This document shows, piece by piece, positions 16,454-57,370 of a DNA stretch of 64,000 nucleotides. A model generated the notes under the pieces. The model was given only the letters and a program-made list of their open reading frames with translations. It ran no database searches and was not told the DNA's origin. Each line of letters begins with the position of its first letter. Position 1 is the stretch's first letter. The position numbers were made by a program, and so were the translations under genes. Source of the stretch: an uncultured Chloroflexia bacterium (lineage in GTDB: Bacteria > Chloroflexota > Limnocylindria > Limnocylindrales > CSP1-4); assembly GCA_963734995.1 (NCBI GenBank), contig CAVTJD010000004.1:23910-87909 (forward strand). The letters are read 5' to 3'.

Positions 16454-16474
16454 CGTCTGAGATCTCCTTGGTCG

Positions 16475-17068
16475 CTAGCCGCCGGCTCCGGCGCAACCGG
16501 CACCGTACAGCACCGTGATCATCGTCGATTCGCCCATCGGGCGGAAGGTCAGCTGGATCCGGCATTCGGGAACATCGCTTTGCGTATCCAGCACCCGGCT
16601 GCCGTCCTCGAGCGGATCCGAGAGGTCGACCGAGCTGTATCCCGCCGCCTCGAGTGCATCCCGGTACCAGGCCGCGACATCATCCACCGATTGCGAGGTC
16701 AGCAACGCATCGCTGACCGGTTCGGCCGGCGGCTCGGCGGGCTCTGCGCCCGGAAGCCGTGGGAAGCTGTCGGGGACCGCATCGAGGATTGCGCCCCAGT
16801 CCGTCTGCGTGACGGGGATACGTGTGGCGGGTGGTCCAGGTGCCGTCGATACGCCCCCGGGCACGGCCGTCGGCTCGGGAGCCAAGCTGCGGGCGTCGGA
16901 CGGGGTCACCGATGGGCCTGCCGCGGTGGTCGGGATCGGCCGCGCCGTGGTGGCATCGGAGCCACAGGCGCCAACCGTGATCGCGAGTGCTGCCGCGAGC
17001 ACCACGACCGAGAGGGACCGGGGAGATCGCCAGCAGATCGATCGCAGAACTCGTGTCACGCTCGCCAT
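16475..17068 (-). CDS. hypothetical secreted lipoprotein (Pro/Thr/Ala-rich)
   Basis: Signal peptide + lipobox MASVTRVLRS...VVVLAAALAITVGACGS; C-terminal globular segment DWGAILDAVPDSF...YRDALEAAGY. Confidence 0.5.
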   Translation of the reverse strand: MASVTRVLRSICWRSPRSLSVVVLAAALAITVGACGSDATTARPIPTTAAGPSVTPSDARSLAPEPTAVPGGVSTAPGPPATRIPVTQTDWGAILDAVPDSFPRLPGAEPAEPPAEPVSDALLTSQSVDDVAAWYRDALEAAGYSSVDLSDPLEDGSRVLDTQSDVPECRIQLTFRPMGESTMITVLYGAGCAGAGG

Positions 17069-17215
17069 CGTAACCGGCGCCGGATGGAGCACGGTGAACG
17101 GCTCTCGTGTCCCCGGCCTGCCCAGGGTCCGGGAAAGGTCGACGGGCGCCATCGCAACGCCGTCGCCATCAGGTCCGCCCCGGCGACGTCCACGTCGGCC
17201 GGAACGGTGGTGTCG

Positions 17216-17353
17216 TCACACAGCGGCTTCGACCATCGCCGGCAGCAGGACCAGGACCAGGCCCATGACGAGCGCGATGGCGACCACCCGCAGCAGGAGA
17301 TCGACGAGGATGCGGCGCGAGGGTCGTCGGACCGGGTCGGCAATCACGCGCAT
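17216..17353 (-). CDS. small single-TM hydrophobic peptide (45 aa)
   Basis: MRVIADPVRRPSRRILVDLLLRVVAIALVMGLVLVLLPAMVEAAV; third member of the small-peptide set; divergent from dnaE2. Confidence 0.3.
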   Translation of the reverse strand: MRVIADPVRRPSRRILVDLLLRVVAIALVMGLVLVLLPAMVEAAV

Positions 17354-17424
17354 TCAGACGCATGGGCGACGGGTTTGGTTGCGTGCCGCGGCGGCGATTT
17401 CGACCAGTGGCCGGCGTTCCGAAT

Positions 17425-17438
17425 CGAACGGATGTTCT
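17425..17438 (+). promoter_or_regulatory. LexA (Cheo-type) box CGAACGGATGTTCT upstream of dnaE2
   Basis: Matches CGAACRNRYGTTYC exactly; lies between TTCCGA (-35-like) and TACACT (-10-like); same half-sites as imuA' box. Confidence 0.7.
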
Positions 17439-17470
17439 ACACTCGGTGTCACCGTTCGGAGAGACCGATC

Positions 17471-22542: not shown

Positions 22543-22640
22543 ACCGGGTCTTGGTCGGAAGGGTTGAGTCGGGGGTAAGGCGCCCGTCCTAGCATCGCCT
22601 CGGTCACCCGCCGCCGACGACTCCCGCCGGGAGGTCACCG

Positions 22641-25600
22641 ATGAGCCATGCCCGGATCGCGGCGGCGGCCGCGATGTCACTCGTCCTGCTCATGGCGTCG
22701 AGCGCGGTGGCGACGCCCGACACGCCGCTCACGACGGTCGAGCCCGCCTCCGTGGTCGACTGGCCGGTATCGACTGGGCTCCTGGTGGCCGAGGTCGTCA
22801 CGGGGGGCGCATCCGCATCTGACGAATATGTGGAGCTGACCAACGCGTCGACGGAGCCACTCGACCTGCTGGGGCTGGAGGTGGTGTACGTCACCGCGAC
22901 CGGCTCGACGGTCACGCGCAAGGCGGTCTGGGACAGCTCGCTCATGGTGGGACCGGGAAGACACCTGCTGTTGGCGAACGCGTCGGGCATGTTCGCCGCG
23001 GCCGCCGACGCGACGTACTCGGGCGGGTTTGCCGCCACCGGTGGGGCGATCGTGCTCCGATCCGTGGGCGGAGCCCCGATCGACGCCGTCGGCTGGGGAA
23101 CCGCCGCGAACGCGTTCGTCGAAGGGGCCGCCGCTCCCGCTCCCGACCCGGGAAGCTCCATCGAGCGCCGACCGGGCGGCACGGCGGGCAACACGATCGA
23201 CAGCAACGACAATGCGGCTGACTTCATCGCCAATCCCGAGCCGGAGGGTCGCAACCTGGCGGCCGACCCGCAGCCGCAACCCACGCCGACGCCGACACCG
23301 TCCCCGGCGCCTTCGGCAACCCTGACCCCATCGCCATCGCCGTCGCTCACGCCCGCGCCGACCGCCACGCCCGCGCCGTCGCTCACGCCCACGCCGACCG
23401 CGACCGCCACGCCGGCGCCAACCGAGTCGGTGTCCCCGTCCCCCAGCGCAACACCGTCGCCGACACCGCATCCCTCACCAACTCCGGCACCCACGGCGTC
23501 GCCGTCGCTCACGCCTGAGCCGTCGAGTGTTCCGTCGCCCAGCCCGGCTCCCACGCCCACCCCGGCGTCGGTCACCGCCATCTCTGTTGCGCGCGGTCTC
23601 GCCGACGGGTCGGACGCGACCATCCAGGGTGTCCTGACCACGTCGCTCGGAGCCCTCGAATCGGGCCGCGCCGGCTTCGTCCAGGACGCGACCGGCGGGA
23701 TCGCCCTCTACCTCGACGCGCCGTTCTCGAGCCCGATCGAGGAGGGAGCCATCGTCACGGCCTCCGGAACGGTCGGCAGCCGCTACGGCCAGCGCACGCT
23801 CCGCGTGACGACGACGTCGGTCGTCGTCGTCGGGACGGCCGAGCTTCCGGCTGCGGTCATGGTCGCGACGGGGTCCGCGACCGAACCTCTGGAAGGCCTG
23901 CGGCTCGAGGTGCGCGGAACAGTGACCGATGCGCCCTCGTCTCTCAGCGACGGCGTCGGGCTCAACGTCGATGACGGATCGGGCACGCTCAGGGTCGTCG
24001 TGGCCCCTGACGCGCTCGGCGGGCTCAGCCCGGCGCCGGGCATGATCGTTCGGGCGCAGGGTCCGCTCGGTCAGCGTGACAGCACCGGCTCCGGAACCGC
24101 CGGCTATCGGCTCTATGCGACTCTGCCCGGCGAGCTCGAGCTGAGCGCGCCCGAGCCCACACCCACATCGCCCCCATCGCCCTCGCCGTCGCCCGCGGCG
24201 AGCCCGAGCCCAAGCCCCACGCCGACCCCGAGCCCGACCCCCGCGCCAACGCCCGCGCCAACGCCCTCGATCACCCCCACGCCGGCCACGATCCACGCCG
24301 CGCGGACCGAGCCCGTCGGCACCCGGGTGACCGTCCGGGGCGTGGTGATCGCACAGAACGGTCGCCTGGGAACGCCACCCCTGTTCGCGATCGCGGACGC
24401 CACCGGGGGCATCGTTGTCCGGCTGCCTGATGGCGTGCCCGCTGCTGCCCGAGGGACGCTGGTCGAGGTCCGCGGCCCGATCGCCGACCCGTACGGCCAG
24501 ACCGAGCTCCGGCCCGGCGACGACGGCATCACCGTGCTCGGATCGGCCGACCTCCCGTCGCCGCTGGTGCTCGAGGCAGGCGGCGCCGGCGAGGACACCG
24601 AGGGACGTCTCGCGACGATCCACGGTGCCATCGCCACCTCGGCGACCCGCGCCACGAGCGGCGATCTCACGTTCACGATCACCGGTGACGACGGGGTCAC
24701 GCTCACGATCCGCGCGGACGCGTCTGCCGGCCTCGACAAGGCGACGTTCCGGAAAGGGCTCGATGGCACCTTCACGGGCGTGATCGGCCAGCGAGCGTCG
24801 CGCAAGGGAAGGCTCGACGGCTATCGGCTGTGGCTCCGCGACGCTCACGACGTCGAGCTGGCGTCGGCACCCGCGCCGTCCGACACGTCTCCGTCACCGT
24901 CGCCATCGTCGACGGATTCGGCGGCTGTCTCCACCGTCGCGGCCGCGCGGATCCGGGAGGGTCACAGGGTCACGGTCGAGGGTGTCCTGACGGTCGACCG
25001 AACGCTGCTCGACGCGACCGGCCGGCGGACGATCGTCGAGGACGCCAGCGGAGCGATCGAGGTCTACCTGTCCACGTCCGACGATTCGATCCACGCCGGC
25101 GAGGAGGTGCGGGTGACGGGGGTCGTCGGGCGGGCCTATGGCGCACCGCGCCTGAAGGCCGATGAGATCCGGGTGCTCGGCGCGCGTCAGCCGGCTGCGC
25201 ACGTGCTTCGCGGCCGGCCGAGCGCCGCGAACGAGTGGGACCTGGTCCGCGTCAGCGGAACGATCACCGATGTTCATCGCGACGGAGATCGATGGCTGGC
25301 CGAGCTCGACATCGGGGGCGGGAAGCTGCTCGTCCAGGGCCTCCCGGGAAGCTCGATCCCGTCGACGGCCGTGATCGAGGGCCGTCCGGCAACGATCACC
25401 GGGATCGTGAAACGACCCTATCCGACGGCAACCGACCGCCGCTTCTCCATTGTTCCGCGCGGACCGTCGGACATCGCTCTTGGACCAGCCGGACCGGGCA
25501 CCGGGGCCGCCGCGGGTGGCTCGTCAGTCGCCGGCGCGCCACAGGCGGTCCTCGCGATGGGCGGCGACCTGGCGCAGGCCGGTGCTCCCGACGTCGATCT

Positions 25601-26231
25601 GCGTGACCTGGCCAGCTACCTCGGCAAGCACGTTCGGGTCGGTGGGTTGGTCACCCGGAGCGCCACCGACGGGTTCGACCTCGATGATGGCACGGCGACC
25701 CGACGGGTCGTGCTGACGGGTTCGGCGATGGAGCTCGCCGGCTCCCTCGTGCCCGGCGATGCCCTCAACGCGACCGGCGTGCCGGAGTCGAGGCAGGGAA
25801 TCGTGCTGGTGGTCGGGGACGCATCGTCCATCGAGCTGGCCGGGGACTTGGGTGGCGGCTCGGCGATCGACGAGGGAGGGTCTCCAGGCGCGACGGCGGA
25901 CATGGTCACTGCCGGTGGCGCATCGGGCACGGCCGTCAGCACGGCGGCGGTCGGCAACGTTGCGTCCACGCCGATGGCGGCCATGGTCGGTGGCGCGCTG
26001 CTGCTGATCGTCATGACGTCGCTGGGCATGACGGCGGCATACCGACGCCGCGCGGAGCGACGCCTCCGCGCCCGGATCTCGGACCGTCTGGCGACAGTGG
26101 TGCGCGGCACGGCAGGGACCGACCAGGTCGCCGCTCCGGCGCCCACGGCGGTGGCATCGGCCGACGAAACCGCGCCGGCCGGCCACGGAGGGGTCGGTCT
26201 GCAGGCGCAGATCAATCGTGAATTTGCTTGA
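22641..26231 (+). CDS. large surface-anchored protein: signal peptide, Lamin-tail domain, Pro/Thr linkers, four OB-fold (tRNA_anti-like) repeats, C-terminal TM anchor
   Basis: Signal peptide [24 protein letters not shown]; LTD-like block [16 protein letters not shown]...AVGWG; four modules with OB pattern ([28 protein letters not shown]; [20 protein letters not shown]; etc.); TM helix [22 protein letters not shown] followed by RRRAERRLR. Confidence 0.7.
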
Positions 26232-45205: not shown

Positions 45206-45321
45206 GTTCCTCATACCGGCGGGCCGTTCCTCCTCCAAGCGATTGCATCCCGGTGACCGCCGCGGGCCGGGTCCCGATCCTCGCCGGCGTCCAGGCAGGG
45301 ACTGGCCGCTAAACGTGCGCG

Positions 45322-45350
45322 TTGACAGTATCACGTTGTTCGGGCTACGA
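45322..45350 (+). promoter_or_regulatory. promoter-like TTGACA-17-TACGAT upstream of tetR
   Basis: Hexamers with 17-bp spacer; flanked by AACGTG/CACGTT inverted repeat. Confidence 0.45.
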
Positions 45351-45362
45351 TCCGAGGTAACC

Positions 45363-45386
45363 GACCGACCGACCGGTCGGTCGGTC
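45363..45386. promoter_or_regulatory. 24-bp perfect palindrome (GACC)3(GGTC)3, candidate TetR auto-operator
   Basis: GACCGACCGACCGGTCGGTCGGTC between promoter and tetR start. Confidence 0.55.
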
Positions 45387-45407
45387 CACACCCGAACGAA
45401 GGTTTCG

Positions 45408-46070
45408 ATGACCAAGCCAGACCCGGCCGAGCAGAGCAGGAACCGCCGCGAACGGATCCTCGATGCCGCGTTCCACGCGTTCGCGACACGTGGCTACCGG
45501 GACACGGCCGTGGACGACATCGCCGGTGCTGCCGAGACGTCCAAGGGCGGCATCTACTTCCACTTCCCGAACAAGGAATCGATCTTTCGCGAGCTGATGG
45601 ACACGACCGCGGACAAGCTGGTCGGGCGGGTCGAGCGCGCGGTGGCCCTCGAGGACGAGCCCGTCGCGCGCGCCGATGCCGCGCTGCACGCGGTGCTGAC
45701 GACGTTTGCCGGCCACCGGACGATGGCGCGGCTGCTGTTCCTGGACACGATGGGCGCGGGCCGCGTGTTCCAGGCCGAGACCAATGCGCTCCACGAGCGG
45801 TTCACGCGCCTCATCCAGGGCTACCTCGATGAGGCCGTTGCGTCGGGGGCGATCCCACCGATCGACACGCGCATCGCGAGCATCGCCTGGTTCGGCGCCC
45901 TGAACGAGGTCGTCGCGCGCTGGCTGCTCGCGGACCACCCCGAGCGCCTGGAGGACGCGTACCCGGCGCTGCGTGCCGTGCTGCTCCGGAGCGTCGGCGT
46001 CGGCGAGGGGCGGATCGGGGAGCTGCCGCCGCTGGATCCCGCGCGCGACTTCCCGGAGGCCGTCCGGTGA
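45408..46070 (+). CDS. TetR/AcrR family transcriptional regulator
   Basis: HTH YRDTAVDDIAGAAETSKGGIYFHFPNKESIF. Confidence 0.85.
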   Translation: MTKPDPAEQSRNRRERILDAAFHAFATRGYRDTAVDDIAGAAETSKGGIYFHFPNKESIFRELMDTTADKLVGRVERAVALEDEPVARADAALHAVLTTFAGHRTMARLLFLDTMGAGRVFQAETNALHERFTRLIQGYLDEAVASGAIPPIDTRIASIAWFGALNEVVARWLLADHPERLEDAYPALRAVLLRSVGVGEGRIGELPPLDPARDFPEAVR

Positions 46071-46143
46071 CGCACGAGCCGCAGACCCGGCCGGCCGCGC
46101 CGCGAGGCCCGCGGGTGACGGCACGGGACGTGGGCCGCGCCGC

Positions 46144-47583
46144 GTGACCGTCCGAGACCCGGCCGAGGCTGGTCTGGCAGAGCGTCTGGGCGACCTGCTC
46201 GATGCGCCGGCGTCGGCCGCATCCGAAGGGCTGGTCGCAACGACGCAGCCTGTCGACGCCCTCGATCCGATCACGCTGTTCGCGGTTGCTGCCGAGAACG
46301 GCCTCGACGTATCGCTGTGGCTGCAGCCGGCCGCGGGGCTCGCGCTGGTGGGGGTCGGGCGAGCCTGGGGAATCGAGCCCGACGGTCCGGATCGGTTCGC
46401 CGTGGCCGAGCGCGCCTGGCGCGACCTGGTGCGCGATGCGCGGGTCGACCGGTCCGAACCGGAACCGGTCGCCGGACCGCTGCTGCTGGGTGGCCTCGGG
46501 TTCTCGGGTCGCACGCCCGCGGCGGCCGGCCCCTGGGGCTCGTTCGGCGCCGCATCCCTGGTCCTGCCGGACCTGGGCTATGCGTCCGCCGGCGGCCGAT
46601 CCTGGCTGACGGCGTCGCTGGTCGGATCGGCCGCGCACCCTCGCGAGGCTCGCCGGCTGGAACGAACCTGGGACGGGCTGCGCGCCCGTGCGCGCGAGCT
46701 GGCTCCAAGCCCGAACGGGATCGTTGCTCGCCCGGTCTTCGCCCCACTCTCGATCATCGGGGAGCAGCCGGACCAGGCGGCCTGGCACCGGCTGGTCGGG
46801 ATGCTGGCAGGCGCGGTCGGACGCGGACGCCTGGACAAGGTGGTCCTCGCGCGGCAGGTCGATCTTCGATCGCCGGTCGAGCTCGATGTCGCGAACGCGC
46901 TGCGCCGGCTGGCGGCCAGCGCCCCCGAGAGCACGATCTACGCGTTCCGTCGCGGTGAAGCGACCTTCCTGGGCGCCACCCCCGAGCGGCTGGTGCGGAC
47001 CGAGGGACGGCGGTTCCGAACGATGGCGGTGGCCGGCACGATCGGTCGCGGTGTCGATGCTGCGGCGGACGCGGCACTGGCGGCCGAGCTGCTCGCATCC
47101 GACAAGAACCGCGAGGAGCATGCCATCGTGGCCGGCTGGATCCGGGATCTTCTGGCACCGCTTGCCGAGACCCTCGAGGTTGCGCCCGAACCGGTGATCA
47201 TGCCGCTGCGCTTCGTGCAGCACCTCGCGACCGAGATCACGGGCACGCTGCCGGACGCCCACGGGCTGCTCGATCTGGGCGGCCGCCTCCATCCGACCCC
47301 CGCCGTCGGCGGCCAGCCACGCGACCTGGCTCTCGAGCTGCTGGACGAGCACGAGGGGTTCGACCGCGGCTGGTACGCGGGCCCGGTGGGCTGGCTCGGC
47401 GTCGACGGTGACGGCGAGCTGTGCGTTGCGTTGCGGTGCGGGATCGTGGAGCGGACGCGAGCCACGCTGTTCGCCGGCTGCGGGATCGTGGCCGACTCGG
47501 ACCCCGATGCCGAATGGGAGGAGTCCCGGATCAAGCTGCGGGCCGTGGTGGCCGCGCTGGGGCGCCTGGAGGATGAAGGGTGA
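46144..47583 (+). CDS. menF: isochorismate synthase (menaquinone-specific)
   Basis: Chorismate-binding fold: motifs RTMAVAGT, AGCGIVADSDPDAEWEE; GTG start chosen after tetR stop (ORF extends upstream in-frame into tetR). Confidence 0.75.
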   Translation: MTVRDPAEAGLAERLGDLLDAPASAASEGLVATTQPVDALDPITLFAVAAENGLDVSLWLQPAAGLALVGVGRAWGIEPDGPDRFAVAERAWRDLVRDARVDRSEPEPVAGPLLLGGLGFSGRTPAAAGPWGSFGAASLVLPDLGYASAGGRSWLTASLVGSAAHPREARRLERTWDGLRARARELAPSPNGIVARPVFAPLSIIGEQPDQAAWHRLVGMLAGAVGRGRLDKVVLARQVDLRSPVELDVANALRRLAASAPESTIYAFRRGEATFLGATPERLVRTEGRRFRTMAVAGTIGRGVDAAADAALAAELLASDKNREEHAIVAGWIRDLLAPLAETLEVAPEPVIMPLRFVQHLATEITGTLPDAHGLLDLGGRLHPTPAVGGQPRDLALELLDEHEGFDRGWYAGPVGWLGVDGDGELCVALRCGIVERTRATLFAGCGIVADSDPDAEWEESRIKLRAVVAALGRLEDEG

Positions 47584-49343
47584 GCGACGCGTCGCTCCTC
47601 CGCGCGTTCGTGGGCGAGCTGGTCGCGGCCGGGGTGCGTGACGCGATCGTGTGCCCGGGGTCGCGGTCGACGCCCCTCGCGCTGGCGCTGCGTGGCGCCG
47701 ACGACATCCGCGTCCGCGTCCTCCTCGACGAGCGGTCGGCCGGGTTCCTTGCCCTGGGCATGGCGCGGACCGCGCGACGCCCGGTGGTGTTGCTGGCGAC
47801 GTCGGGCACCGCCAATGTCGAGCTCGCGCCGGCCGTCGTCGAGGCGTCGCTCTCGCGCGTGCCGCTGGTGGTGCTCACCTCCGACCGACCCCCGGAGCTT
47901 CGCGACCGTGGCGCCCCCCAGACGATCGACCAGGCGCGCCTGTACGGGTCGGCTGCCAAGTGGTACGCGGAGCTGCCGCTGGCCGATGGCGAGCCCGTCA
48001 CCCTGGCGCACGTCCGATCCGTGGTGGGCCGCGCGGTGGCTACCGCGGTCGCCGGTCCGGCGGGGCCCGTCCAGGTCAACGTCCCGTTCCGCGAGCCGCT
48101 GCTGCCTGACGGGCCGGTGGTCCTCGCGACGGGCGATGCGCCGGCGGAGCCGTTCACCGCGAACATGGTCGGCCGGCGGGTGCTCGATGAGGGGTCCATC
48201 GACCGGCTCGCGTCGAGGATCGAGGGACGGCCGAGGCGCGGCCTGATCGTCGCAGGCCCGGACGACGATCCGCGGCTGGCCGTGGCCCTCCCCCGGCTCG
48301 CCGAGGCGACCGGCTTCCCGATCCTCGCCGACCCGCTGTCGGGGCTGCGGGCCGGTTCCCATGATCGGGCGATGGTGATCGCGCGCGGGGACCAGCTGTG
48401 CCGCCCGGGACCCTGGATCGAGGCGCACATTCCGGAGCTCGTGATCCGCACGGGCGCCATGCCCACCTCCAAGCCGATCGTGGAGCTGCTGGCCAGGGCA
48501 CGACCGGAGCTGATCGTCCTCGACGGCGATGCGGGCTGGCGCGAGTCGGCCGTCATCCCGGCGACGTTCGTCCATGCGGACCCGGCAACGACGGCCGAGG
48601 CGTTGGCCCGGCGGCTCGGCCCGGGGCGGGCAGGCACGGTGTGGAGCTCGGATTGGCGGCGCGCGGACGATGCAGCCGACGAGGCGATGACCTCCTGGCT
48701 CGCGAGGCTGGACGAGCCCTTCGAGGGGGCGCCGTTTCCCGCGCTCGCCGAGGCGCTTCCGGATGGCGCCGTGCTGTGGGCCGGTAACTCGATGCCGGTG
48801 CGCGACCTCGACGGCTGGCTGCCCTCGACCGATCGATCGATCACGATCCGTGCCAATCGCGGCGCGATGGGGATCGACGGGGTGGTCTCGACCGCCCTTG
48901 GCTCGGCGGCCGTCGCTCCGGGGCCGGTGGCTCTCGTCGTGGGCGACCTGTCGTTCCTCCACGATCTGAACGCGCTGGTCGCCGCCCGGCTGCATGACCT
49001 GTCCGCGACGATCGTGCTCGTCGACAACGACGGCGGCGGGATCTTCTCGTTCCTGCCCCAGGCGCAGCCGTCCGCCGCCACACCCGGGACGGGGCTTCCC
49101 GAGCACTACGAGGAGCTGTTCGGGACGCCGCACGGGATCGACGTCGGTCCGATCGTGGCGGCGCTCGGCGGCGAGCACCGGGTCGTCGGTCACCGCGAGC
49201 TCGGGGCGGAGATCCGGCACAGCCTCGGGCGCCCGGGTGTCCGCGTGCTCGAGCTGCGGACCGATCGGGCGCGCAACGTCGAGCTCCATCGCGAGGTCGA
49301 GGCGCTGGTTCATGTCGCCATCGGCCACGGGGCCGTCGCGTGA
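47580..49343 (+). CDS. menD: SEPHCHC synthase (2-succinyl-5-enolpyruvyl-6-hydroxy-3-cyclohexene-1-carboxylate synthase)
   Basis: ThDP enzyme; N-terminus [28 protein letters not shown] typical of MenD; 4-nt overlap with menF. Confidence 0.85.
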
Positions 49344-50164
49344 CCCGGATCGCCGTCAACGGCGCGCGCTACGAGGTCCGGATCGCGGGTCACGGGCCGG
49401 CGATCCTGCTGCTCCACGGGTTCACCGGCCGAGGCGCCGACTGGGGCCCGTTCCTGCCCGCCCTGCGCACCGGCCGGACCACGGTCGCGGTCGATCTGCT
49501 CGGACACGGCAGGTCCGACGCGCCGGCCGCTCCGGCCCGCCACGAGCTGGCGGCCCAGGCCGCGGATCTGGCCGCCATCCTGATCGATCGGCAGCTGGCG
49601 CCCGCGATCGTGCTCGGCTACTCGTTCGGCGCCCGTGTCGCCCTCAGGCTCGCCGCCGATCGCCCGGACGTCGTTGGGGCGCTCGCGCTCGAGAGCCCGT
49701 CGGCCGGTATCGAGGACCCGGCGGCCCGCGCCCGTCGCCGTGCCGAGGACGAACGTCTGGCCGAAGCGATCGAGCGGGACGGCATCGCGGCCTTCGTCGA
49801 TCGCTGGTGGGCGACGGCGGCCGTGTTCGCCTCCGAGCAGGCGCTTCCGGTTTCGACGAGGAGCCATCTTCGAGCGCAGCGCCTGCGCAACCGGCCCGCT
49901 GGTCTCGCGGCGTCACTCCGGGGCGCAGGCCAGGGCGCCATGGAGCCGCTGCATGCACGCCTGCCCGCGATCCGGGTGCCTGCACTCGTCCTTGCCGGCT
50001 CGCTCGATCCCACCGGTGCCGCCCGCGCCCGCGAGGTCGCCGGGTGCCTGCCCGCAGGGCGGATCACCATCATCGACGGGGCCGGCCACGCCCCGCACCG
50101 CGAGACGCCGGCCGCGTTCCGGCGAGCCATCCTCGACTTCCTCCAGGAGGTGCCAGCTCCATGA
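49340..50164 (+). CDS. menH: SHCHC synthase (alpha/beta hydrolase)
   Basis: alpha/beta hydrolase [23 protein letters not shown] nucleophile elbow; position between menD and menB. Confidence 0.8.
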
Positions 50165-50991
50165 CCGACGCCGTCGCCTGGACGCCCGTCGCCGAGTACC
50201 ACGACATCCGCTACGAGCACTCCGGAACCGGGATCGCGAAGGTCACGATCAACCGGCCGGAGGTGCGCAACGCGTTCCGACCCCAGACCGTGCAGGAGCT
50301 GATCGACGCCTTCGCTCGCATTCGCGACGACGCCGGCATCGGCTGCGTCCTGCTCACGGGCGAAGGTGACAGGGCGTTCTGCTCGGGCGGCGACCAGCGC
50401 TACAAGCGCCAGTCGGGTGGCTACGTCGGCGATGACGGCATCGCCCGGCTCAACGTGCTCGACCTGCAACGCCAGATCCGCTCCCTACCGATCCCGGTGA
50501 TCGCGCTCGTCAACGGCTACGCGATCGGCGGTGGCCACGTGCTCCACGTGGTGTGCGACATGTCGATCGCGTCCGACAACGCGATCTTCGGCCAGGTCGG
50601 TCCGAAGGTCGGGAGCTTCGATGCCGGGTTCGGCGTGGGGCTGCTCGCGCGGCTGGTGGGCGACAAGAAGGCCAAGGAGATCTGGTTCCTGTGCCGTCAG
50701 TACTCGGCCCAGGAGGCGCTCGACATGCACCTGGTCAACAAGGTCGTCCCGCTGGCGGACCTGGAAGCCGAGGGCGTGGCCTGGGCGAACGAGATCCTGG
50801 AGATGAGCCCGACGGCGATCCGGTTCCTCAAGTCGGCGTTCCTGGTCGCCACCGACGGGCTGGCCGGGCTCCAGGAGTTCGCGGGCAACGCAACCGGCCT
50901 GTTCTACACGACCGACGAGGCGCACGAGGGTTCCCGGGCCTTCCTCGAGAAGCGGCCCACCGAGTACTCGAAGTATCCGAGGCGGCCTTGA
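50161..50991 (+). CDS. menB: 1,4-dihydroxy-2-naphthoyl-CoA synthase
   Basis: Crotonase fold; [28 protein letters not shown]; ATGA overlap with menH. Confidence 0.9.
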
Positions 50992-51938
50992 GCCAGCCTG
51001 CCGCACCGGCGGCGGCTCCGTCCGCGGCCCGGCCGTCACCCGTCCGGATCTGGCTGCTGGCCGCCCGCCCGGCGACGCTGCCGGCCGCGCTTGCGGGGGT
51101 GGTGGTCGGGATCGGTGCGGCCCTGGGTGTCGGTGGCCAGCTGCGGATCGATACCGCGCTCGGCTGCGTGGCCGTCGCACTGCTGCTCCAGGTGGTCGCC
51201 AACTTCGCGAACGACCTGTCCGACTTCCGGCGCGGCGCGGATACGCCGGATCGCTCGGGGCCCGTGCGGGTCGCCGCCGCCGGTCTGGTGACCGAGCGCC
51301 AGCTCGAGGTCGCGATCGCGATCACGATCGGGGTCGCGGGCGTGATCGGGCTGTGGCTCGCGTACGTCGGCGGGCCGGTGCTGATCCTGCTGGGGGTGCT
51401 CGCGGTGGTGGCCGCGCTCGCCTACACCGGTGGTCCGCTCCCGTACGGCTATCGGGGCCTGGGCGAGGTGTTCGTCTTCGTGTTCTTCGGGCTGGTCGCC
51501 GTGATCGGCACGGCCTATCTCCAGGTGCTCCGCCTGGAGCCCGTGTTCGTCGCGGCGGCGATCCCGGCCGGAGCGCTGATCACCGCGATCCTGGTGATCA
51601 ACAACCTGCGGGACATCCCCACCGATCGGGCCGCGGGCAAGCGCACGCTGGCGGTGATGCTGGGCGTCGAGGGCACGCGGATCGAGTACGCGGTGCTGCT
51701 CGTGGTGGCATTCCTGGTGCCGATCGGGCTGGTCGTGGAAGGATGGTCGGCGTGGGCGCTGACGCCGCTGCTGTCGCTGCCGCTGACATGGCCGCTGCTC
51801 CGGACCGTCTGGCGCTTCCGGGAGCCTCGGGAGCTCAACCCGGTGCTCAAGGGCACGGCCAGGCTCTCCCTGTTGTTCGCGATCCTGTTCGCGATCGGGC
51901 TGGCCCTGGGCGCGCCGGGCCTGGGCTCGGCGATATGA
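50988..51938 (+). CDS. menA: 1,4-dihydroxy-2-naphthoate polyprenyltransferase (UbiA family)
   Basis: UbiA motifs [15 protein letters not shown] and multiple TM helices; start codon uncertain (TTG overlapping menB stop; no in-frame ATG). Confidence 0.75.
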
Positions 51939-51948
51939 GCGCACGCTC

Positions 51949-53088
51949 GTGAGCGAGATCGTCTCGATCCGCGCCGACCGGGTAGCGCTGCCGTTCCGCC
52001 GCCCGTTTCCCACCTCGACCGGCATGTGGGTCGAGCGCGAGACGTGGCTGCTCAGGGTCACCGACCGGGACGGGCGAACCGGGTACGGCGAGGCCGTGCT
52101 CGAACCCGACGATGGCGAGACGGCGGCGACGGTGCTGCGGCTGCTGATCCGGGACGTGGCGGAGCATGCCGCGACCGGACGCCTTCCCCGGCCGGACGAG
52201 CTCGAGGGTCATGGGCGCCCGGGCCGGTCGCTGCGCGCGGCGCTCGATGGTGCGGCGCTCGACCTGCGGACCTCGCCGGCGGCGTCGCTCACCGCGGATG
52301 GGGCGGGGGTGGGTGTCAACGCGACGCTCCCGGCGCTGGGACCGGCGGCATCGGCCGAGGCGGCGCGACAGGCCGTGGCGGCGGGCTTCCGAACGCTCAA
52401 GATCAAGGTGGGCGCCGAGCGCGAGACGGTGACGCTCACCGACCGGGTGGGTGCGGTCCGGTCCGCGGTCGGGCCCGACGTCCGGATCCGCCTGGACGCG
52501 AACGGCGCCTGGGATCCCGAGACGGCGAGCGAACGCCTGGCGGGTGTGGCGCGGTTCGAGCCCGAGTACGTGGAGCAGCCGCTGGCCGGCGACGATCCGG
52601 CGCTCCTCGCGGCGCTGCGGCGTCGCGCCCGGGTGCCGATCGCAGCGGACGAATCGGTGGCCTCGCTGCGCGCGGCGAGGGACCTCCTCGAGGCGGATGC
52701 CGTTGATGTGCTGGTGGTCAAACCGTCGCGCGTGGGCGGCCCGGTCGTGGTCGCGGAGATCGCCGCGATGGCCGCTGACCGTGGCGTGCCGGTGGTCGTG
52801 AGCACGCTGTTCGAGACGGGCATCGGGATCGCCGCCGCGCTGGCGCAGGCGGCCGCCCTGCCCGACGTGGCTGGCGGCGAGCCCGATGCCGACGATGGGA
52901 GGGAACGTGACCATGGGCTGGCGACCGCGGGGCTGCTCGAGCACGACCTGCTGCTCGATGGCCTGCCGGTCGAGGACGGGCGGATGCGGCTGCCCGACCC
53001 GGTGCCTGGCGGTGGGCTGGGGATCCGGCTCGACGAGCGGGCCGTGGAACGCTACCGGACGGAGTCGATCGAGGCGGTTGGCCGGTGA
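51949..53088 (+). CDS. menC: o-succinylbenzoate synthase (enolase superfamily)
   Basis: MR/MLE family: KIKVG, IRLDANGAWD, EYVEQP; GTG start. Confidence 0.8.
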   Translation: MSEIVSIRADRVALPFRRPFPTSTGMWVERETWLLRVTDRDGRTGYGEAVLEPDDGETAATVLRLLIRDVAEHAATGRLPRPDELEGHGRPGRSLRAALDGAALDLRTSPAASLTADGAGVGVNATLPALGPAASAEAARQAVAAGFRTLKIKVGAERETVTLTDRVGAVRSAVGPDVRIRLDANGAWDPETASERLAGVARFEPEYVEQPLAGDDPALLAALRRRARVPIAADESVASLRAARDLLEADAVDVLVVKPSRVGGPVVVAEIAAMAADRGVPVVVSTLFETGIGIAAALAQAAALPDVAGGEPDADDGRERDHGLATAGLLEHDLLLDGLPVEDGRMRLPDPVPGGGLGIRLDERAVERYRTESIEAVGR

Positions 53089-55334
53089 GCGGCGGCGTGC
53101 TGAGTGGCGGCGTGGTGAGCGGCGGTGCGTTGAGCGCTGACGCGGTGTCCGAGCAGCTGCGTGCGCACGCGCGGGCCGCTCGCGATTCGCCCGCGCTGCT
53201 CGAGGGCGAGGTGGCCGTCAGCTGGGCGGACCTCGACCGTCGATGCGAGCGCGTGGCATCGGAGCTGTCGTTGGCGGGCGTGCGTCGGGGCGACGTCGTG
53301 GCGATCACGGTGCAGCCGTCGGGTGACACGATCGCCGCCATCCTGGGTGCCCTGCGCGCCGGTGCCGCGGTCGCGCCCGTCTCGGGACGCTTGACCGAGG
53401 CGGAACGGGCGGCGGTCATCGACGTCCTGGATCCCGTCCTCGAGCTCGGGCCGGCGGCGGCCGTGCGGCGCGGGCGGAGGCTCGCCGGCCCTGCCGTCGT
53501 GGTGATGACATCGGGCACGACCGGGCGGCCCAAGGGCGTGGTGCTCTCGCCCGCGGCGATGATGGCCAGCGCCGACGCATGGATCGCGGCGCTGCCGCCG
53601 GCCACCGGCTGGGTGCTGGCGCTCGGGCTGGGGCATGTCGCCGGCCTGGGCGTCGTGTGGCGGGCGATCAGGGCGCGGGTGCCAATCCGGATCGTTCCCG
53701 CCATCGAGTCCGAGGCGATCCTCGCGGCGGTGACCGCGGAGCCTCCGATGAGCCACCTGTCGCTGGTGCCGGCACAGCTCGCCCGGCTGCTCGACGGCTC
53801 GGACGATGCCGCGCCGCCCGCGACGCTGCGAGCCGTGCCGCTGGGCGGTGGGCTCATCGCCCCGGCGCTCGTCGCGCGCGCGCTCGCCGCCGGCTGGCCG
53901 GTGGTGCCGACCTATGGGCTGAGCGAGGCCGGGTCGGGCGTCACGGCGCTTTCGACCAATGAGGCGCGGGAGGACCCCGGGAGCGCGGGCCGGCCGCTCC
54001 CCGGGGTCAGCGTCTCGATCGACGACCCGGACACGGACAGGGTTGGCGAGATCCTCGTGGCGAGCCCAGCCGCGTTCGACGGCTACCTCGACGAGGAGTC
54101 CCGTCCACGCGGCGCGCCGATCCGGACGGGAGACCTGGGCCGGCTCGATGATGCCGGGCGGCTGTTCGTCGTCGACCGGCGGACCGACCGGATCGTGCGC
54201 GGCGGAGAGAACATCGCCCCGGCCGAGGTCGAGGCGGTCCTGGAGCGGCACCCGGCGATCGCCGATGCCGCGGTCATCGGGCGACCCGACGCGACGCAGG
54301 GCCAGGTGCCGGTGGCCGTGGTGGCCGTCCGTCCGGGCGCCGCACATCCCGGGTCGGCCGCGCTGGCCGCCCATGCTCGGGCCTCGCTGGCCGGGTTCAA
54401 GGTCCCGGTGTCGTTCATCCGCGTGGCAGCGCTGCCGCGCACGAGCGGCGGCAAGCTTCGGCGAGGCGAGGTCCGCGCCATGCTCGACCGACCGCTCGTC
54501 GGCAGCCTCGTGCGCCCGGACGGGACGCGGATCGGATGGCGCTCGACGGGCACCGGGCCCGAGCCCCTGATCCTGCTCCACGGCACGCTGTCAACCGCGC
54601 GCCAGCTCGACCGGCTGGCCGCCGAGCTCGCGCGCCCGGGTCGGCTGACCGTCCACGCCGTCGATCGCCGGGCGAGCGGTGCGAGCCGGGTCACCGACCC
54701 GGCGCCGCTCGACGTTGCGGTCCACGTCGACGACCTGCTCGCTGTCCTCGTCCATCTGGGCATCGACGCCGCGTCGCTGGTCGGTCTCAGCTTCGGCGCG
54801 GTGCTGGCGCTCGAGGCGGCGGCCCGGCACCCGGAGCGCGTGGCCGGTGTCGTGGCATGGGAGCCGCCATACGTGCCGCTCGCCGACGAGCCGACCCGCG
54901 AGCGCCTCGCTCGCGTGGCCGCGGCGACGCGAGCGGCGCATCAGCGAGCGGGCGCGCCTGCGGCGGCGGAGACGTTCCTGCGGGGCGTGGCCGGTGACGC
55001 CGCCTGGGAGCGCCTCCCGGACCGTGCCCGCGCGTTCCTCGCCGGCGAGGGGGACGTGGCACTGGCCGACGCCGGGCTGCTCGGGCTGGATCCCGATGGG
55101 CTTGCCGGGATCGCCGCCCCGGTCATCCTCGTCACCGGCTCGGCGAGCGAGCCGTTCTATGCTCCGATCGCGCGCGCGCTGGCGACGCGCATCCCCGGTG
55201 CGCGCCTGGCGGAGCTCGACGGGCTGGGCCACGCGGCACCGATCACCGAGCCCGGCCGTGTGGCCGCCACCTTCAGGGCGTGCCTGGAGGGCGTACCTGG
55301 AGCACCGGCCGTGACCCTGGAGCATCAGCCGTGA
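53085..55334 (+). CDS. menE: o-succinylbenzoate-CoA ligase fused to C-terminal alpha/beta-hydrolase domain
   Basis: AMP-binding motif MTSGTTGRPKGVVLS, GGENIAPAEVE...SGGKLRRGE through residue about 470; then alpha/beta hydrolase with GLSFGAVLA nucleophile elbow and GLGHAAPI His. Confidence 0.8.
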   Translation: MSGGVLSGGVVSGGALSADAVSEQLRAHARAARDSPALLEGEVAVSWADLDRRCERVASELSLAGVRRGDVVAITVQPSGDTIAAILGALRAGAAVAPVSGRLTEAERAAVIDVLDPVLELGPAAAVRRGRRLAGPAVVVMTSGTTGRPKGVVLSPAAMMASADAWIAALPPATGWVLALGLGHVAGLGVVWRAIRARVPIRIVPAIESEAILAAVTAEPPMSHLSLVPAQLARLLDGSDDAAPPATLRAVPLGGGLIAPALVARALAAGWPVVPTYGLSEAGSGVTALSTNEAREDPGSAGRPLPGVSVSIDDPDTDRVGEILVASPAAFDGYLDEESRPRGAPIRTGDLGRLDDAGRLFVVDRRTDRIVRGGENIAPAEVEAVLERHPAIADAAVIGRPDATQGQVPVAVVAVRPGAAHPGSAALAAHARASLAGFKVPVSFIRVAALPRTSGGKLRRGEVRAMLDRPLVGSLVRPDGTRIGWRSTGTGPEPLILLHGTLSTARQLDRLAAELARPGRLTVHAVDRRASGASRVTDPAPLDVAVHVDDLLAVLVHLGIDAASLVGLSFGAVLALEAAARHPERVAGVVAWEPPYVPLADEPTRERLARVAAATRAAHQRAGAPAAAETFLRGVAGDAAWERLPDRARAFLAGEGDVALADAGLLGLDPDGLAGIAAPVILVTGSASEPFYAPIARALATRIPGARLAELDGLGHAAPITEPGRVAATFRACLEGVPGAPAVTLEHQP

Positions 55335-56080
55335 CCACCGACCCTCACGACAACGCACCCTCGGGAGCCTCGACCGGCGCCGGCAACGCGGCGGCCAGCG
55401 GCGAGGTTCGCGCGATGTTCGACCGCATCGCGCGCGTCTACGACCCGATGAACCTGGCGATCAGCGCGTTCCAGGAGCCACGCTGGCGACGCCATCTGGT
55501 GCGGGGCGCACGGGTGCGAGCGGGTGGCTCGGCGCTGGACGTCGCCACGGGCACGGGCAAGGTCGCCGCCGACCTGCGCCGGCGGGCCGGCGCCAACGGG
55601 CGCGTGCTGGGGGTGGACCTGTCACCGGGCATGGTCTCGATCGCCCGGCGCCGGTTTGGCGGTACGCCGGGTCTCGAGTTCGTCGTCGGCGACGCGCTGG
55701 CGCTGCCGACCGAGGATGGGGCGTACGACGCGGCCACGATCGCGTTCGGGATGCGCAACCTGCCCGACTACCGGCGCGGCTTCGAGGAGATGGCGCGCTC
55801 GGTTCGGCCGGGCGGTCGTGTGCTGTGTCTCGAGATCGCGCGGCCACGCAGCCGGCTTGCCCGGTTCATGCGCTGGTGGTTCGACCGGATCGTGCCGCTG
55901 ATCGGCCGGCTGGCCGGCCAGGGAAGCGCGTATGCGTACCTTGTACGCAGCGTCCAGGCCTACCCGGCGCCCGAGCGAATCGCCGAGATCATGTCCGAGG
56001 CCGGTCTGGTCGACGTCCGCTGGCGCGGGCTCACGGGTGGCATCGTCACCCTCCACGAGGGCACCGTTCCGGAGCGCTGA
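55331..56080 (+). CDS. menG: demethylmenaquinone methyltransferase (UbiE/MenG)
   Basis: SAM-MTase motif LDVATGTGKVA, GMRNLPDY; GTGA overlap with menE. Confidence 0.85.
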   Translation: MTTDPHDNAPSGASTGAGNAAASGEVRAMFDRIARVYDPMNLAISAFQEPRWRRHLVRGARVRAGGSALDVATGTGKVAADLRRRAGANGRVLGVDLSPGMVSIARRRFGGTPGLEFVVGDALALPTEDGAYDAATIAFGMRNLPDYRRGFEEMARSVRPGGRVLCLEIARPRSRLARFMRWWFDRIVPLIGRLAGQGSAYAYLVRSVQAYPAPERIAEIMSEAGLVDVRWRGLTGGIVTLHEGTVPER

Positions 56081-56098: not shown

Positions 56099-57370
56099 GT
56101 GCGCCCACCGCTCGGTCGAGTCGTCGACACGATCGCCCCACCTCGCCTTGGCCGCAGCTTCCGCTGGCTGTTCGCCGCAACCCTGGTCAACAACGTCGGC
56201 GACGGCGTCGTCCTTGCCGCGGGACCGCTGCTCGTCGCCTCGCTGACCCGGGACCCGTTCCTGGTGTCGCTGGCGTTGTTCATGGACTACCTGCCCGTCC
56301 TCCTGTTCGCCCTGGTCGGCGGGGTCGCGGCGGACCGATTCGATCGTCGGCGGATGGTCATCGTGGCCGACGTCGCGCGCGCCCTCGTGCTCGTGGCCCT
56401 GGTCGTTGCGATCGTGACGGGCGTCGTCGGGATCGCGCTGGTGCTGCTCACCCTGTTCCTGCTGGGCATGGCCGAGACGTTCGCGGACTCGGCGAGCAGC
56501 ACGCTGCTGCCGGGCATCGTGGCACGCGGCGACCTGGGCATGGCGAACGCACGGATGCAGGGCGCCTTCGTGCTCGCGAACCAGCTCCTGTTCCCACCGG
56601 TGGGCGCCTTCCTGTTCGTGGTGGGACCGGCCGTTCCGTTCGCGGCCAACGCGATCAGCTTCGCGCTGGGCGCGGTGCTGATCAGCCGGGTGGCGGCGGG
56701 TCGTCGCGCCGAGCGAACGGCCGCAGCGAGCTCGGTCCGAACCGACCTCGTCGAGGGGATCCGCTGGCTGCTGCACCACCCACCGATGCGGACGCTCATG
56801 CTGACGATCTTCGCGTTCAACGTGACCTTCGGCGCCGCCTGGTCGGTGCTCGTGCTGTACGCGGCAGACCGGCTGGGCATGAGCGAGGTCGGGTTCGGTC
56901 TGCTGACGACCGCGGTCGCGGTGGGCGGGCTGGTCGGGACCAGCGCCTATGGCTTGCTCGAGCGGCGGTTCTCGCTGGCCGACATCATGCGAGTCGGGCT
57001 GCTGATCGAGACGTTCACGCATCTTTCGCTCGCGCTCACGACGTCGCCGGCCTGGGCGCTCGCGACCCTCGTGGTGTTCGGAGCGCATGCGTTTGTCTGG
57101 GGCACGACGGCGACCGTCGTCCGCCAGCGCGCCGTCCCGGACGCCGTGCTGGGCCGGGTCGGCGGGGTCTACCGGGTGGGTCACACCGGCGGCATGGTCA
57201 TCGGGACGCCGATCGGCGGGCTGCTCGCGACCGCGTACGGGATCACGGCACCGTTCTGGTTCGGGTTCATCGGCTCGGCGGTCCTGGTCGCGATCTTGTG
57301 GCGCGAGTTCGCCCACATCGTCAATGCCGCGGACGAGCCGGCCGAGTTCCCATCGCCTTCGGCTTCATGA
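56099..57370 (+). CDS. MFS transporter
   Basis: 12 predicted TM helices, MFS loop motifs. Confidence 0.75.
   Translation: MRPPLGRVVDTIAPPRLGRSFRWLFAATLVNNVGDGVVLAAGPLLVASLTRDPFLVSLALFMDYLPVLLFALVGGVAADRFDRRRMVIVADVARALVLVALVVAIVTGVVGIALVLLTLFLLGMAETFADSASSTLLPGIVARGDLGMANARMQGAFVLANQLLFPPVGAFLFVVGPAVPFAANAISFALGAVLISRVAAGRRAERTAAASSVRTDLVEGIRWLLHHPPMRTLMLTIFAFNVTFGAAWSVLVLYAADRLGMSEVGFGLLTTAVAVGGLVGTSAYGLLERRFSLADIMRVGLLIETFTHLSLALTTSPAWALATLVVFGAHAFVWGTTATVVRQRAVPDAVLGRVGGVYRVGHTGGMVIGTPIGGLLATAYGITAPFWFGFIGSAVLVAILWREFAHIVNAADEPAEFPSPSAS

Follow-up and report, generated by a model that had tools for sequence, protein, structure and literature searches.

The men operon and its MenE fusion protein

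The 64-kb stretch of DNA that was analysed (hereafter the window) harbours a complete and translationally coupled men operon with the order menF-D-H-B-A-C-(E::X)-G, in which most adjoining genes overlap by 4 nt and X denotes an alpha/beta-hydrolase domain joined to MenE. The operon and its flanking features are listed below, with profile scores and family cut-offs in parentheses:

45243..46070, + strand: TetR-family regulator, immediately 5' of menF (Pfam TetR_N, 57.7 bits, and TetR_C_24)
45973..47583, + strand: menF, isochorismate synthase (TIGR00543, 304.9 bits; cut-off 224.75)
47580..49343, + strand: menD, SEPHCHC synthase (TIGR00173, 417.4 bits; cut-off 244.2)
49340..50164, + strand: menH, SHCHC synthase (TIGR03695, 203.9 bits; cut-off 208.55)
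50161..50991, + strand: menB, DHNA-CoA synthase (NF005637, 447.8 bits; cut-off 380)
50988..51938, + strand: menA, DHNA polyprenyltransferase (NF004751, 327 bits; cut-off 264)
51949..53088, + strand: menC, o-succinylbenzoate synthase (MR_MLE_C, 176.9 bits)
53085..54479, + strand: MenE domain (OSB-CoA ligase), residues 1-465 of the fusion (AMP-binding and AMP-binding_C)
53086..53136, + strand: 15-bp tandem repeat, 3.4 copies, at the 5' end of menE (TRF)
54480..55334, + strand: X, alpha/beta-hydrolase domain, residues 466-749 (Abhydrolase_6, PF12697, 67.4 bits)
55275..55336, + strand: nested tandem duplications, 13 bp x 2.2 and 20 bp x 2 (TRF)
55331..56080, + strand: menG/ubiE, demethylmenaquinone methyltransferase (TIGR01934, 198.7 bits; cut-off 158.35)
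56099..57370, + strand: MFS transporter, 3' of menG (MFS_1, 123.3 bits)

The TetR gene probably starts later than 45243, and a promoter-like match (45322-45351) lies within its listed reading frame; the gene is equivalently placed in two related loci (L002 and L003). In the case of menF the coordinates are those of the listed reading frame, with 46144 as a candidate alternative start, whilst for menA we propose a TTG start that overlaps the menB stop codon by 4 nt. MenB also passes TIGR01929 (396.3 bits; cut-off 342.7), and the top NCBIfam matches of menC are OSB synthase models, every one under its cut-off. Judged by its sequence, the gene at 49340..50164 is the true MenH of the operon: its product contains G-Y-S-F-G-A-R, corresponding to the MenH invariants Tyr85, Ser86 and Arg90, as well as G-S-L-D at the acid position. 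At the other end of the operon, the GTG start codon of menG shares 4 nt with the stop codon of X (GTGA junction), and the nested duplications span both the 3' end of X and this overlap. By tblastn synteny, roughly half of the related loci have an MFS gene after menG, directly adjoining it in many. The operon thus encodes all classical men steps but DHNA-CoA hydrolysis.

The fusion protein is encoded by an open reading frame of 749 aa with a GTG start codon (53085..55334, + strand): residues 1 to ~465 form MenE and residues ~466-749 form X in the same frame, with neither a stop codon nor a change of frame at the junction in the window sequence. Together with the Pfam domains, this bears out the first-pass annotation, which had described a 749-aa MenE with a C-terminal alpha/beta hydrolase. 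The AMP-binding match (PF00501, 167.9 bits) has its best stretch at residues 136-335 and AMP-binding_C (PF13193, 66.7 bits) covers residues 381-457, whilst the core motifs TSGTTGRPKG, TYGLSE and GGKLRR (Lys457) are present, being invariant or nearly so in 42 fusions. The top NCBIfam model for this half is TIGR01923 with 278.9 bits, under the curated equivalog cut-off of 330.15, and hence the assignment as MenE rests on best match and operon context. The 5' repeat of menE encodes SGG(V/A)(L/V) units; residues 1-16 are disordered in the model (pLDDT <50), and the repeat is not kept in relatives, full-length tblastn alignments starting at query residues 3-47.

Fold and active site of the X domain

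The folded part of X comprises residues ~470-735. Abhydrolase_1 scores 50.8 bits over residues 494-608 of the full protein; when X was searched alone, Abhydrolase_6 was matched nearly full length (residues 30-263 of 284) and the scores for PF12697 (67.4 bits) and PF00561 (53.9 bits) both exceeded the gathering scores. The AF2 model of X (pLDDT 93.3, pTM 0.92) displays the canonical alpha/beta-hydrolase strand order, with the following active site elements:

54783..54797, + strand: nucleophile elbow G567-L-S569-F-G571, after strand beta5 in the model
54861..54872, + strand: E593-P-P-Y596 motif, directly after strand beta6
55230..55232, + strand: predicted catalytic His716, after strand beta8 in the model

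None of the 80 X sequences departs from Ser569, His716 or the four EPPY residues, and several Arg, Asp and His residues are likewise invariant, which indicates that X is under selection as a catalyst. The earlier description of an intact nucleophile elbow and His motif is borne out. One correction concerns the acid: the canonical position after strand beta7 is Ser688 in 79 of 80 sequences rather than Asp, and the neighbouring residue 689 is variable (E in 50, D in 17, Q in 12, L in 1). The sequence pattern points to Glu593, which follows strand beta6, as the probable acid of the triad.

X reaches no curated family cut-off in NCBIfam, matching generic Pfam families only. The first-pass annotation had considered that the domain might group with haloalkane dehalogenases or epoxide hydrolases; it does so with neither, the nucleophile being Ser and not Asp and the scores falling far below the cut-offs (NF002938, 40.9 vs 241; NF002043, 24.9 vs 265). 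Similarly rejected were the curated esterase families (best NF051488, 78.7 vs 390), the 3-oxoadipate enol-lactonase PcaD (TIGR02427, 61.6 vs 255.85) and BioH (TIGR01738, 38.2 vs 206.95). Among solved structures, those closest to X in fold are generic esterases and lactonases as well as hydrolases with no assigned function (TM 0.72-0.74), and no specific likeness of X in sequence or fold to any characterised thioesterase was found. The closest solved relative by profile search is PDB 3r0v (84 bits, E = 8.5e-23). One outgroup operon (L128) has a distant X-like gene (32% identity to X, hhalign probability 99.3) that shares the S, EPPY and H motifs and overlaps the preceding menE by 4 nt.

Distribution of X and of hotdog thioesterases in men loci

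The related loci stem from metagenome-assembled genomes (MAGs) of Candidatus Limnocylindrales; the synteny set comprises 83 loci and the fusion count 81. X lies between menE and menG in all 83, sequence identity in the X-bearing loci reaching down to ~53%, and the order menF-D-H-B-A-C-E-X-G is found in the window and in every related locus long enough to show it; retention of X in the operon equals that of the men genes themselves (tblastn synteny). As to the phylogenetic distribution of the fusion, a point raised by the first-pass annotation, MenE and X are fused in frame in 68 of the 81 Limnocylindrales loci, many of them Illumina assemblies, whilst in the other 13 X is a separate gene in the same slot, its start mostly overlapping the menE stop codon or lying just past it. 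The best 120 matches in a set of 5.8 billion proteins are all fusions (681-833 aa), and two Illumina MAGs (L012 and L067) carry a clean MenE-X-MenG triple fusion. The MenE::X fusion is genuine and no artefact.

The proposal that an otherwise complete men operon contains no hotdog gene holds for the operon and the window. No hotdog gene (PF03061/PF13279) came up when the plausible reading frames of the 64-kb window were scanned with Pfam, and phmmer/jackhmmer searches of all its six-frame reading frames, seeded with a 4HBT protein and E. coli MenI, returned nothing. X itself has no 4HBT match in Pfam, and the 83 loci that carry X yielded no hotdog gene of either type. As in E. coli, a hotdog DHNA-CoA thioesterase may be encoded elsewhere in the genome. 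For comparison we used a MenC-anchored sample of men clusters, chosen independently of X: in 10 loci the 3' end of menE directly adjoins a hotdog gene (PF13279/PF03061), in 3 such a gene comes after menC (13 hotdog loci altogether), and in 4 the gene after menE is X or a distant X-like gene. A hotdog gene and X never occur together in one locus of this sample, although phylogeny confounds this mutual exclusivity, a single clade accounting for nearly all X-bearing loci. Neither X nor a hotdog gene is carried by 19 of 35 other men clusters, implying that the step is often encoded outside the cluster and that absence from the operon alone is weak evidence.

Proposed role of X and comparison with known systems

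We propose, with a probability of roughly 55% on this sequence-based evidence, that the fusion is a bifunctional menaquinone enzyme in which X replaces the hotdog DHNA-CoA thioesterase non-homologously. This substrate and reaction best account for the fusions, the slot of X in the operon, the single step that is missing and the exclusivity with hotdog genes; X of the Limnocylindrales probably serves to remove CoA from DHNA-CoA. The MenE domain would adenylate o-succinylbenzoate to give OSB-CoA, which the operon-encoded MenB would convert to DHNA-CoA by ring closure; X would then hydrolyse the thioester via an acyl-enzyme on Ser569, with His716 as base and Glu593 as acid, freeing DHNA and giving back the CoA spent by the MenE domain. 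MenA would prenylate DHNA, and MenG would subsequently methylate the product. Whether X founds a new family of alpha/beta-hydrolase DHNA-CoA thioesterases, mechanistically distinct through a serine acyl-enzyme and welded to MenE for most of Limnocylindrales history and in some members to MenG too, is a wider claim that we regard as evenly poised.

A different but rather doubtful reading is that X is an active menaquinone-pathway enzyme with a role other than the hydrolysis of DHNA-CoA: it might clear mis-made acyl-CoAs or OSB-CoA as a proofreading or housekeeping thioesterase, take part as a hydrolase or lyase in a quinone modification specific to the lineage, or act as an acyltransferase with DHNA-CoA as donor. 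Slot, fusions and the invariant Ser, His and Glu tie X to the pathway and not to a particular reaction, and the alpha/beta-hydrolase fold also performs lyase, acyltransferase and oxygenase chemistry, MenH itself being a lyase (PMC3630204). However, the operon leaves no further classical step unassigned, a thioesterase attacking the product of its own fused domain (OSB-CoA) would be futile, and the position-equivalent gene elsewhere is a 4HBT-type hotdog thioesterase. It is improbable that X is a hitch-hiking general esterase, captured by menE by chance and held by operon inertia: whilst X reaches only generic Pfam families and the PDB 3r0v family, which comprises its wider EPP-motif relatives, is abundant and unlinked to men genes, a neutral passenger would be expected to decay or vanish in some lineages, and not to keep the same slot in 83 of 83 loci down to ~53% identity, with an invariant active site, a fusion to MenE in 68 of 81 loci and now and then one to MenG as well.

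That X is a duplicated MenH, acting as a second SHCHC synthase, appears highly improbable, even though the two share fold and operon and align over their full length in BLASTP (31% identity, E = 3e-8). On TIGR03695 X scores 43.2 bits over residues 29-149 only, i.e. the N-terminal half, against 203.9 for the upstream MenH and a cut-off of 208.55. MenH has the invariants Tyr85, Ser86, Arg90 and Asp210 (PMC3630204); the X elbow G-L-S-F-G-A-V contains neither the Tyr (the residue before the nucleophile is L/H/V across X sequences) nor an Arg at Ser+4, and Ser replaces Asp at the position of Asp210, the canonical acid. All MenH genes in 80 outgroup loci encode G-Y-S-x-G, the X-family HMM divides every such MenH from X, and both genes are retained in every related locus; the earlier statement that X is distinct from MenH is thus upheld. 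It is scarcely conceivable that misassembly or a frameshift gave rise to the fusion, or that X is a non-catalytic appendage: some long-read MAG loci do have frameshift-garbled junctions (L003, L041, L044 and L069), and the window derives from a 697-kb contig for which the sequencing technology is not given, but the same in-frame junction is shared by 68 of 81 loci, many of which are short-read assemblies, and by each of the 120 best database matches, and the invariant catalytic residues and the domain model (pLDDT 93) speak against an appendage.

To our knowledge, DHNA-CoA hydrolysis was the last classical step of menaquinone/phylloquinone synthesis to gain an enzyme, and all enzymes that we know to have been assigned to it are hotdog-fold proteins. 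In many phyla, the gene for this step is a guess at best. X provides a concrete, clonable candidate in an entire uncultured lineage that is common in soils and fresh waters. If X is a DHNA-CoA thioesterase, this vitamin pathway, itself an antibacterial target, would gain a further example of non-homologous isofunctional enzymes, and a single polypeptide would use up CoA before the MenB ring closure and recover it afterwards. Database names would then need correction: at present the fusions go by 'O-succinylbenzoic acid-CoA ligase' or 'alpha/beta fold hydrolase' alone, and standalone X genes by 'pimeloyl-ACP methyl ester carboxylesterase'. Should thioesterase activity be absent, the strict conservation would instead indicate an unrecognised menaquinone step or control point.

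The reaction proposed for X (EC 3.1.2.28) is catalysed by MenI/YdiI of E. coli, Slr0204 of Synechocystis, plant DHNAT1/2 and MenI of Listeria and S. aureus. These hotdog enzymes have an unrelated fold (PF03061/PF13279, ~140 aa) and are not known to use a serine nucleophile, whereas X is a 270-aa alpha/beta hydrolase with a predicted Ser-His-Glu triad that is usually fused to MenE; no sequence similarity is detectable between the two. In genomic placement they are much alike: the Slr0204-like type adjoins menE or menC in the 13 outgroup loci, resembling the slot of X after menE. A catalytic acid after strand beta6 occurs in the zearalenone lactonase ZHD101, the HLD-II haloalkane dehalogenases and Cif, and E. 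coli YbfF and BioH are alpha/beta-fold enzymes with acyl-CoA thioesterase activity; both a Ser/Asp-His-Glu(beta6) arrangement and thioester hydrolysis are thus feasible in this fold. ZEN lactonase and YbfF are among the structural and sequence matches of X, albeit as resemblances with generic scores (TM ~0.68; 50 bits). PDB 3r0v, an alpha/beta hydrolase from Sphaerobacter thermophilus with no assigned function, has the motifs DRRG, G-x-S-x-G, EPPY and G-x-A-S in common with X at only ~26% identity (Foldseek); unlike X, its family is standalone (~260 aa), abundant in Actinomycetota and Chloroflexota and located away from men genes.

Precedents for the fusion of Men enzymes and for non-orthologous replacement exist: plant PHYLLO is a multi-domain MenF/D/C/H protein. 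MenY-MenI fusions and the predicted MenJ were inferred from fusion and clustering (Ravcheev and Thiele 2016, PMC4746308). Unlike X, none of these links MenE to a hydrolase or places an alpha/beta hydrolase at the MenI step. MenH, a lyase with an alpha/beta-hydrolase fold that was at first wrongly annotated as a naphthoyl-CoA thioesterase (PMC3630204), is like X in fold and operon and unlike it in active site, X being without the Tyr85-Ser86 pair, Arg90 and Asp210 and having its predicted acid after strand beta6. If our reading of X is correct, the men operon would indeed encode a naphthoyl-CoA thioesterase with an alpha/beta-hydrolase fold, an idea discarded in the past, in the shape of a protein other than MenH.

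The menE fusion gene and its operon

The open reading frame at 53085–55334 (+ strand) begins with GTG, specifies a protein of 749 aa and runs from MenE into an alpha/beta-hydrolase domain (X; residues ~466–749, X numbering being the full-length residue minus 465) without a stop codon or a change of frame at the junction. Pfam places AMP-binding (best stretch residues 136–335) and AMP-binding_C (residues 381–457) in the first 460 residues of the fusion and an alpha/beta-hydrolase C-terminal of AMP-binding_C, with the Abhydrolase_6 match covering nearly all of the last 284 residues when this part was scanned alone; the linker from the last MenE motif to the first hydrolase strand comprises ~10 residues. 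The first-pass annotation had described MenE joined to a complete alpha/beta-hydrolase, and this description holds: the reading frame is real, both halves carry Pfam domains and the junction is open. TIGR01923 (menE) is the top NCBIfam model for the N-terminal part, at 278.9 bits against a cut-off of 330, and the MenE assignment therefore rests on this best match together with the intact ANL motifs (TSGTTGRPKG, TYGLSE, GGK457LRR) and the context. The AF2 model of the full-length fusion (pTM 0.64) leaves the packing of the domains undefined.

Both ends of the gene are repetitive. menE opens with 3.4 copies of a 15-bp tandem repeat (53086–53136) that is translated as SGG(V/A)(L/V) repeats. Relatives lack this segment and the model shows it as disordered, so translation may in fact begin further downstream, e.g. 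at the GTG at 53145. At 55275–55336, the C-terminal tail of X (…PGAPAVTLEHQP) is the product of nested tandem duplications, 33 nt in all (13 bp x2.2 plus 20 bp x2), which have also doubled GTGAC, the stop/start junction to menG. Such slippage could be the origin of X-menG read-through fusions.

Features of the men operon and its flanks in the window (coordinates, strand where assigned, feature)
45243–46070: TetR-family regulator, directly upstream of menF
45322–45351: sigma-70-like promoter match, ahead of menF
45973–47583, +: menF
47580–49343, +: menD
49340–50164, +: menH
50161–50991, +: menB, hidden inside a long spurious ORF
50988–51938, +: menA
51949–53088, +: menC
53085–55334, +: menE::X (X at 54480–55334)
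55331–56080, +: menG/ubiE
56099–57370: MFS transporter (EntS/H+ antiporter-like), after menG

The operon junctions are mostly 4-nt start/stop overlaps, with GTGA at both ends of menE::X. Each classical men step except DHNA-CoA hydrolysis is encoded, in agreement with the earlier claim of an otherwise complete operon. That claim had also noted the lack of a hotdog gene in the operon, and this lack extends across the 64-kb window: none was found by Pfam scans of plausible ORFs or by six-frame phmmer/jackhmmer searches seeded with a 4HBT protein and E. coli MenI. In two related loci (L002 and L003) a TetR gene is likewise found at this position ahead of menF, and the regulator may hence control the men operon. 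Downstream of menG, an MFS transporter recurs in about half of the related loci and is in many of them the immediate neighbour.

Elsewhere, the window is made up of housekeeping genes (hrcA-grpE-dnaK, dnaE, gap, pgk, pgi, lepA, glycosidases). Its dnaE ORF (16238–21679) looks unusually long, with a stretched PHP match (216 residues for a 164-position model), an HHH_6 match of 148 for 90, and a widened gap separating the polymerase core from the finger domain; the scan gave no intein domain. A protein of ~1200 aa (22593–26231) carries lamin-tail and OB-fold nucleic-acid-binding domains and no other recognised domains.

Distribution and reality of the fusion

Scanning one genome per GTDB species for X gave 138 relatives, the best 80 of which are all Chloroflexota MAGs with at most 73% identity to the window. 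In these 80 and three metagenome loci, the order menF-D-H-B-A-C-E-X-G is kept wherever the locus is long enough. The phylogenetic distribution of the fusion had been put forward as a check. menE and X form a single stop-free reading frame in 68 of 81 loci, and nearly all branches of the X tree are fused, the unfused sequences forming one coherent clade and a few singles. In the 13 loci counted as separate, X usually lies in another frame, its start coinciding with the menE stop or following it closely. All 120 best matches to the full-length protein are fusions of 681–833 aa, with one exact match; the fused proteins are already present in public databases, where their labels name either the OSB-CoA ligase or the alpha/beta fold hydrolase alone.

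An X-seeded protein search returned standalone proteins of ~284 aa and proteins with AMP-binding_C, all from Chloroflexota/Candidatus Limnocylindrales. The 284-aa length common to many standalone homologues was set aside, as it coincides by chance with the chosen query length; the Met at which the query was cut is not conserved in the fused proteins. In an exhaustive search, the X family proper comprises ~45 clusters at the 50% identity level, many of 745–875 aa, and the next full-length relatives reach at most 141 bits.

Men genes are split or garbled in the long-read contigs of L001, L003, L041, L044 and L069 (MFD and ERZ250395xx MAGs), where, for example, a chorismate-binding gene is broken in two and the C-terminus of X is out of frame. 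Such breaks fit indel errors, and any fusion or fission seen in those records should be read with care. Homopolymer errors are ruled out as the cause of the fusion by the many fused loci in short-read assemblies; an artefact is unlikely and the MenE-X fusion is real. In two short-read MAGs the MenE-X frame also runs stop-free into menG, predicting MenE-X-MenG triple fusions of ~1000 aa:
L012 (JBBSCF010000003.1), ~8627–11551
L067 (JBKJXL010000114.1), ~1163–4204
Three similar cases in long-read MAGs were discarded as probable frameshift errors, and the X-MenG fusion P0119 (L003, a long-read MAG) was dropped, its fragmented or garbled genes resembling frameshift errors.

Fold, active site and family of the hydrolase domain

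The AF2 model of X (pLDDT 93.3, pTM 0.92) has its strands in the canonical alpha/beta-hydrolase order, capped by a lid of four helices. Ser569 (G-L-S-F-G), His716, E593-P-P-Y596, Asp662, Arg528, Arg581, His547 and Asp550 are invariant in 80 X sequences, which bears out the intact nucleophile elbow and histidine first described. After strand beta7, where the acid canonically sits, there is a conserved Ser688 with a variable neighbour (E/D/Q/L), and Glu593, whose EPPY motif directly follows strand beta6, is therefore most likely the catalytic acid. An acid after strand beta6 is used by zearalenone lactonase, HLD-II dehalogenases and Cif.

Against curated families X reached no cut-off, the best score being PcaDC with 78.7 against 390. 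A grouping with MenH duplicates or with dehalogenases, named in the first-pass annotation as the contrary case, was not seen: the MenH model gave 43.2 against a cut-off of 208.55, and the dehalogenase and BioH models scored lower still. Weak matches to PF00975 ('Thioesterase') in 19 of 25 X sequences were not counted as evidence, since the upstream MenH gives a similarly weak match. PDB 3r0v, the best profile match, has the EPPY and G-x-A-S motifs in common with X; it was rejected as a solved orthologue, its family being very large and its genes not adjoining men genes. The closest structures solved so far, at TM 0.72–0.74, belong to generic esterases and lactonases. Rv0554, an alpha/beta hydrolase of the M. 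tuberculosis men cluster, is merely a generic structural match (TM 0.70).

Proposed role and comparison with hotdog-associated clusters

As the first census was seeded with X, a second scan of metagenome contigs was anchored on MenC and men genes were mapped on the resulting loci. True X was found there only in the Limnocylindrales-like loci L087–L089. The outgroup operon L128 (JAABUM010001063.1; menF-D-H-B-A-C-E), whose MenC and MenB are 41% and 68% identical to those of the window, has a distant X-like gene that keeps the S, EPPY and H motifs (GHSYG, IEPPY, GH) and matches the X alignment with an hhalign probability of 99.3 (E = 1.8e-20), so that menE and X are associated outside the core family as well. 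In 13 other, unrelated men loci a PF13279/PF03061 hotdog (4HBT/4HBT_2) gene lies beside menE or menC; at the menE 3' end, the distance is at most ~200 nt in nine of ten loci and at most ~700 nt in L157.

Candidate hydrolysis genes in the MenC-anchored loci
L128, 9735–10526: X-like gene, 264 aa, 32% identity, overlapping the menE stop by 4 nt
L132, L137, L144, L145, L147, L149, L156, L157, L158, L160: hotdog gene beside the menE 3' end (convergent)
L135, L136, L151: hotdog gene after menC

Thirty-five loci contain menE and no less than 700 nt of sequence after it; of these, four have X or the X-like gene, 12 a hotdog gene, 19 neither and none both. In the 83 X-bearing loci, phmmer/jackhmmer detected no hotdog gene within 10 kb. 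Such exclusivity is what non-orthologous displacement at a single locus would be expected to produce, and it is confounded by phylogeny. The 19 loci with neither candidate show that the DHNA-CoA hydrolysis step is often encoded elsewhere.

With architecture, conservation, linkage and exclusivity of X established, the best available interpretation, strengthened here and unproven, is that X acts as a DHNA-CoA thioesterase (probability roughly 55%), a reading in which we infer both substrate and chemistry. The MenE domain would make OSB-CoA and MenB would close the ring to DHNA-CoA, whose thioester would be attacked by Ser569, activated by His716 and Glu593; X would release DHNA and CoA, and MenA and MenG would complete the quinone. 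The fusion would thereby join the consumption of CoA and its release in a single polypeptide chain.

The main competing explanation, in which X is a men-pathway enzyme with another substrate or other chemistry, is in our view less likely. That X is a passenger esterase is unlikely, its place between menE and menG being kept throughout. A MenH paralogue is also unlikely. X and the upstream MenH share 31% identity, and MenH itself was first mis-annotated as a DHNA-CoA thioesterase (PMC3630204); the MenH invariants Tyr85, Arg90 and Asp210 defined in that work are present in the upstream gene and absent from X, and an X-family HMM applied to 80 unrelated men loci set every MenH (G-Y-S-x-G, menH position) apart. 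Together with the low MenH score, this sustains the distinction from MenH made at the outset.

We found no report of an alpha/beta-hydrolase-fold DHNA-CoA thioesterase in the literature and nothing on menaquinone synthesis in Limnocylindria. Ravcheev and Thiele predicted the replacements MenJ and MenY from fusions and clustering, and proposed no alpha/beta-hydrolase for the DHNA-CoA hydrolysis step (PMC4746308). In the papers examined on the enzyme itself, the DHNA-CoA thioesterases of E. coli, Listeria, S. aureus, cyanobacteria and plants are hotdog proteins, and the hotdog gene beside menE or menC in the 13 clusters corresponds to the known arrangement of the Slr0204-like system.
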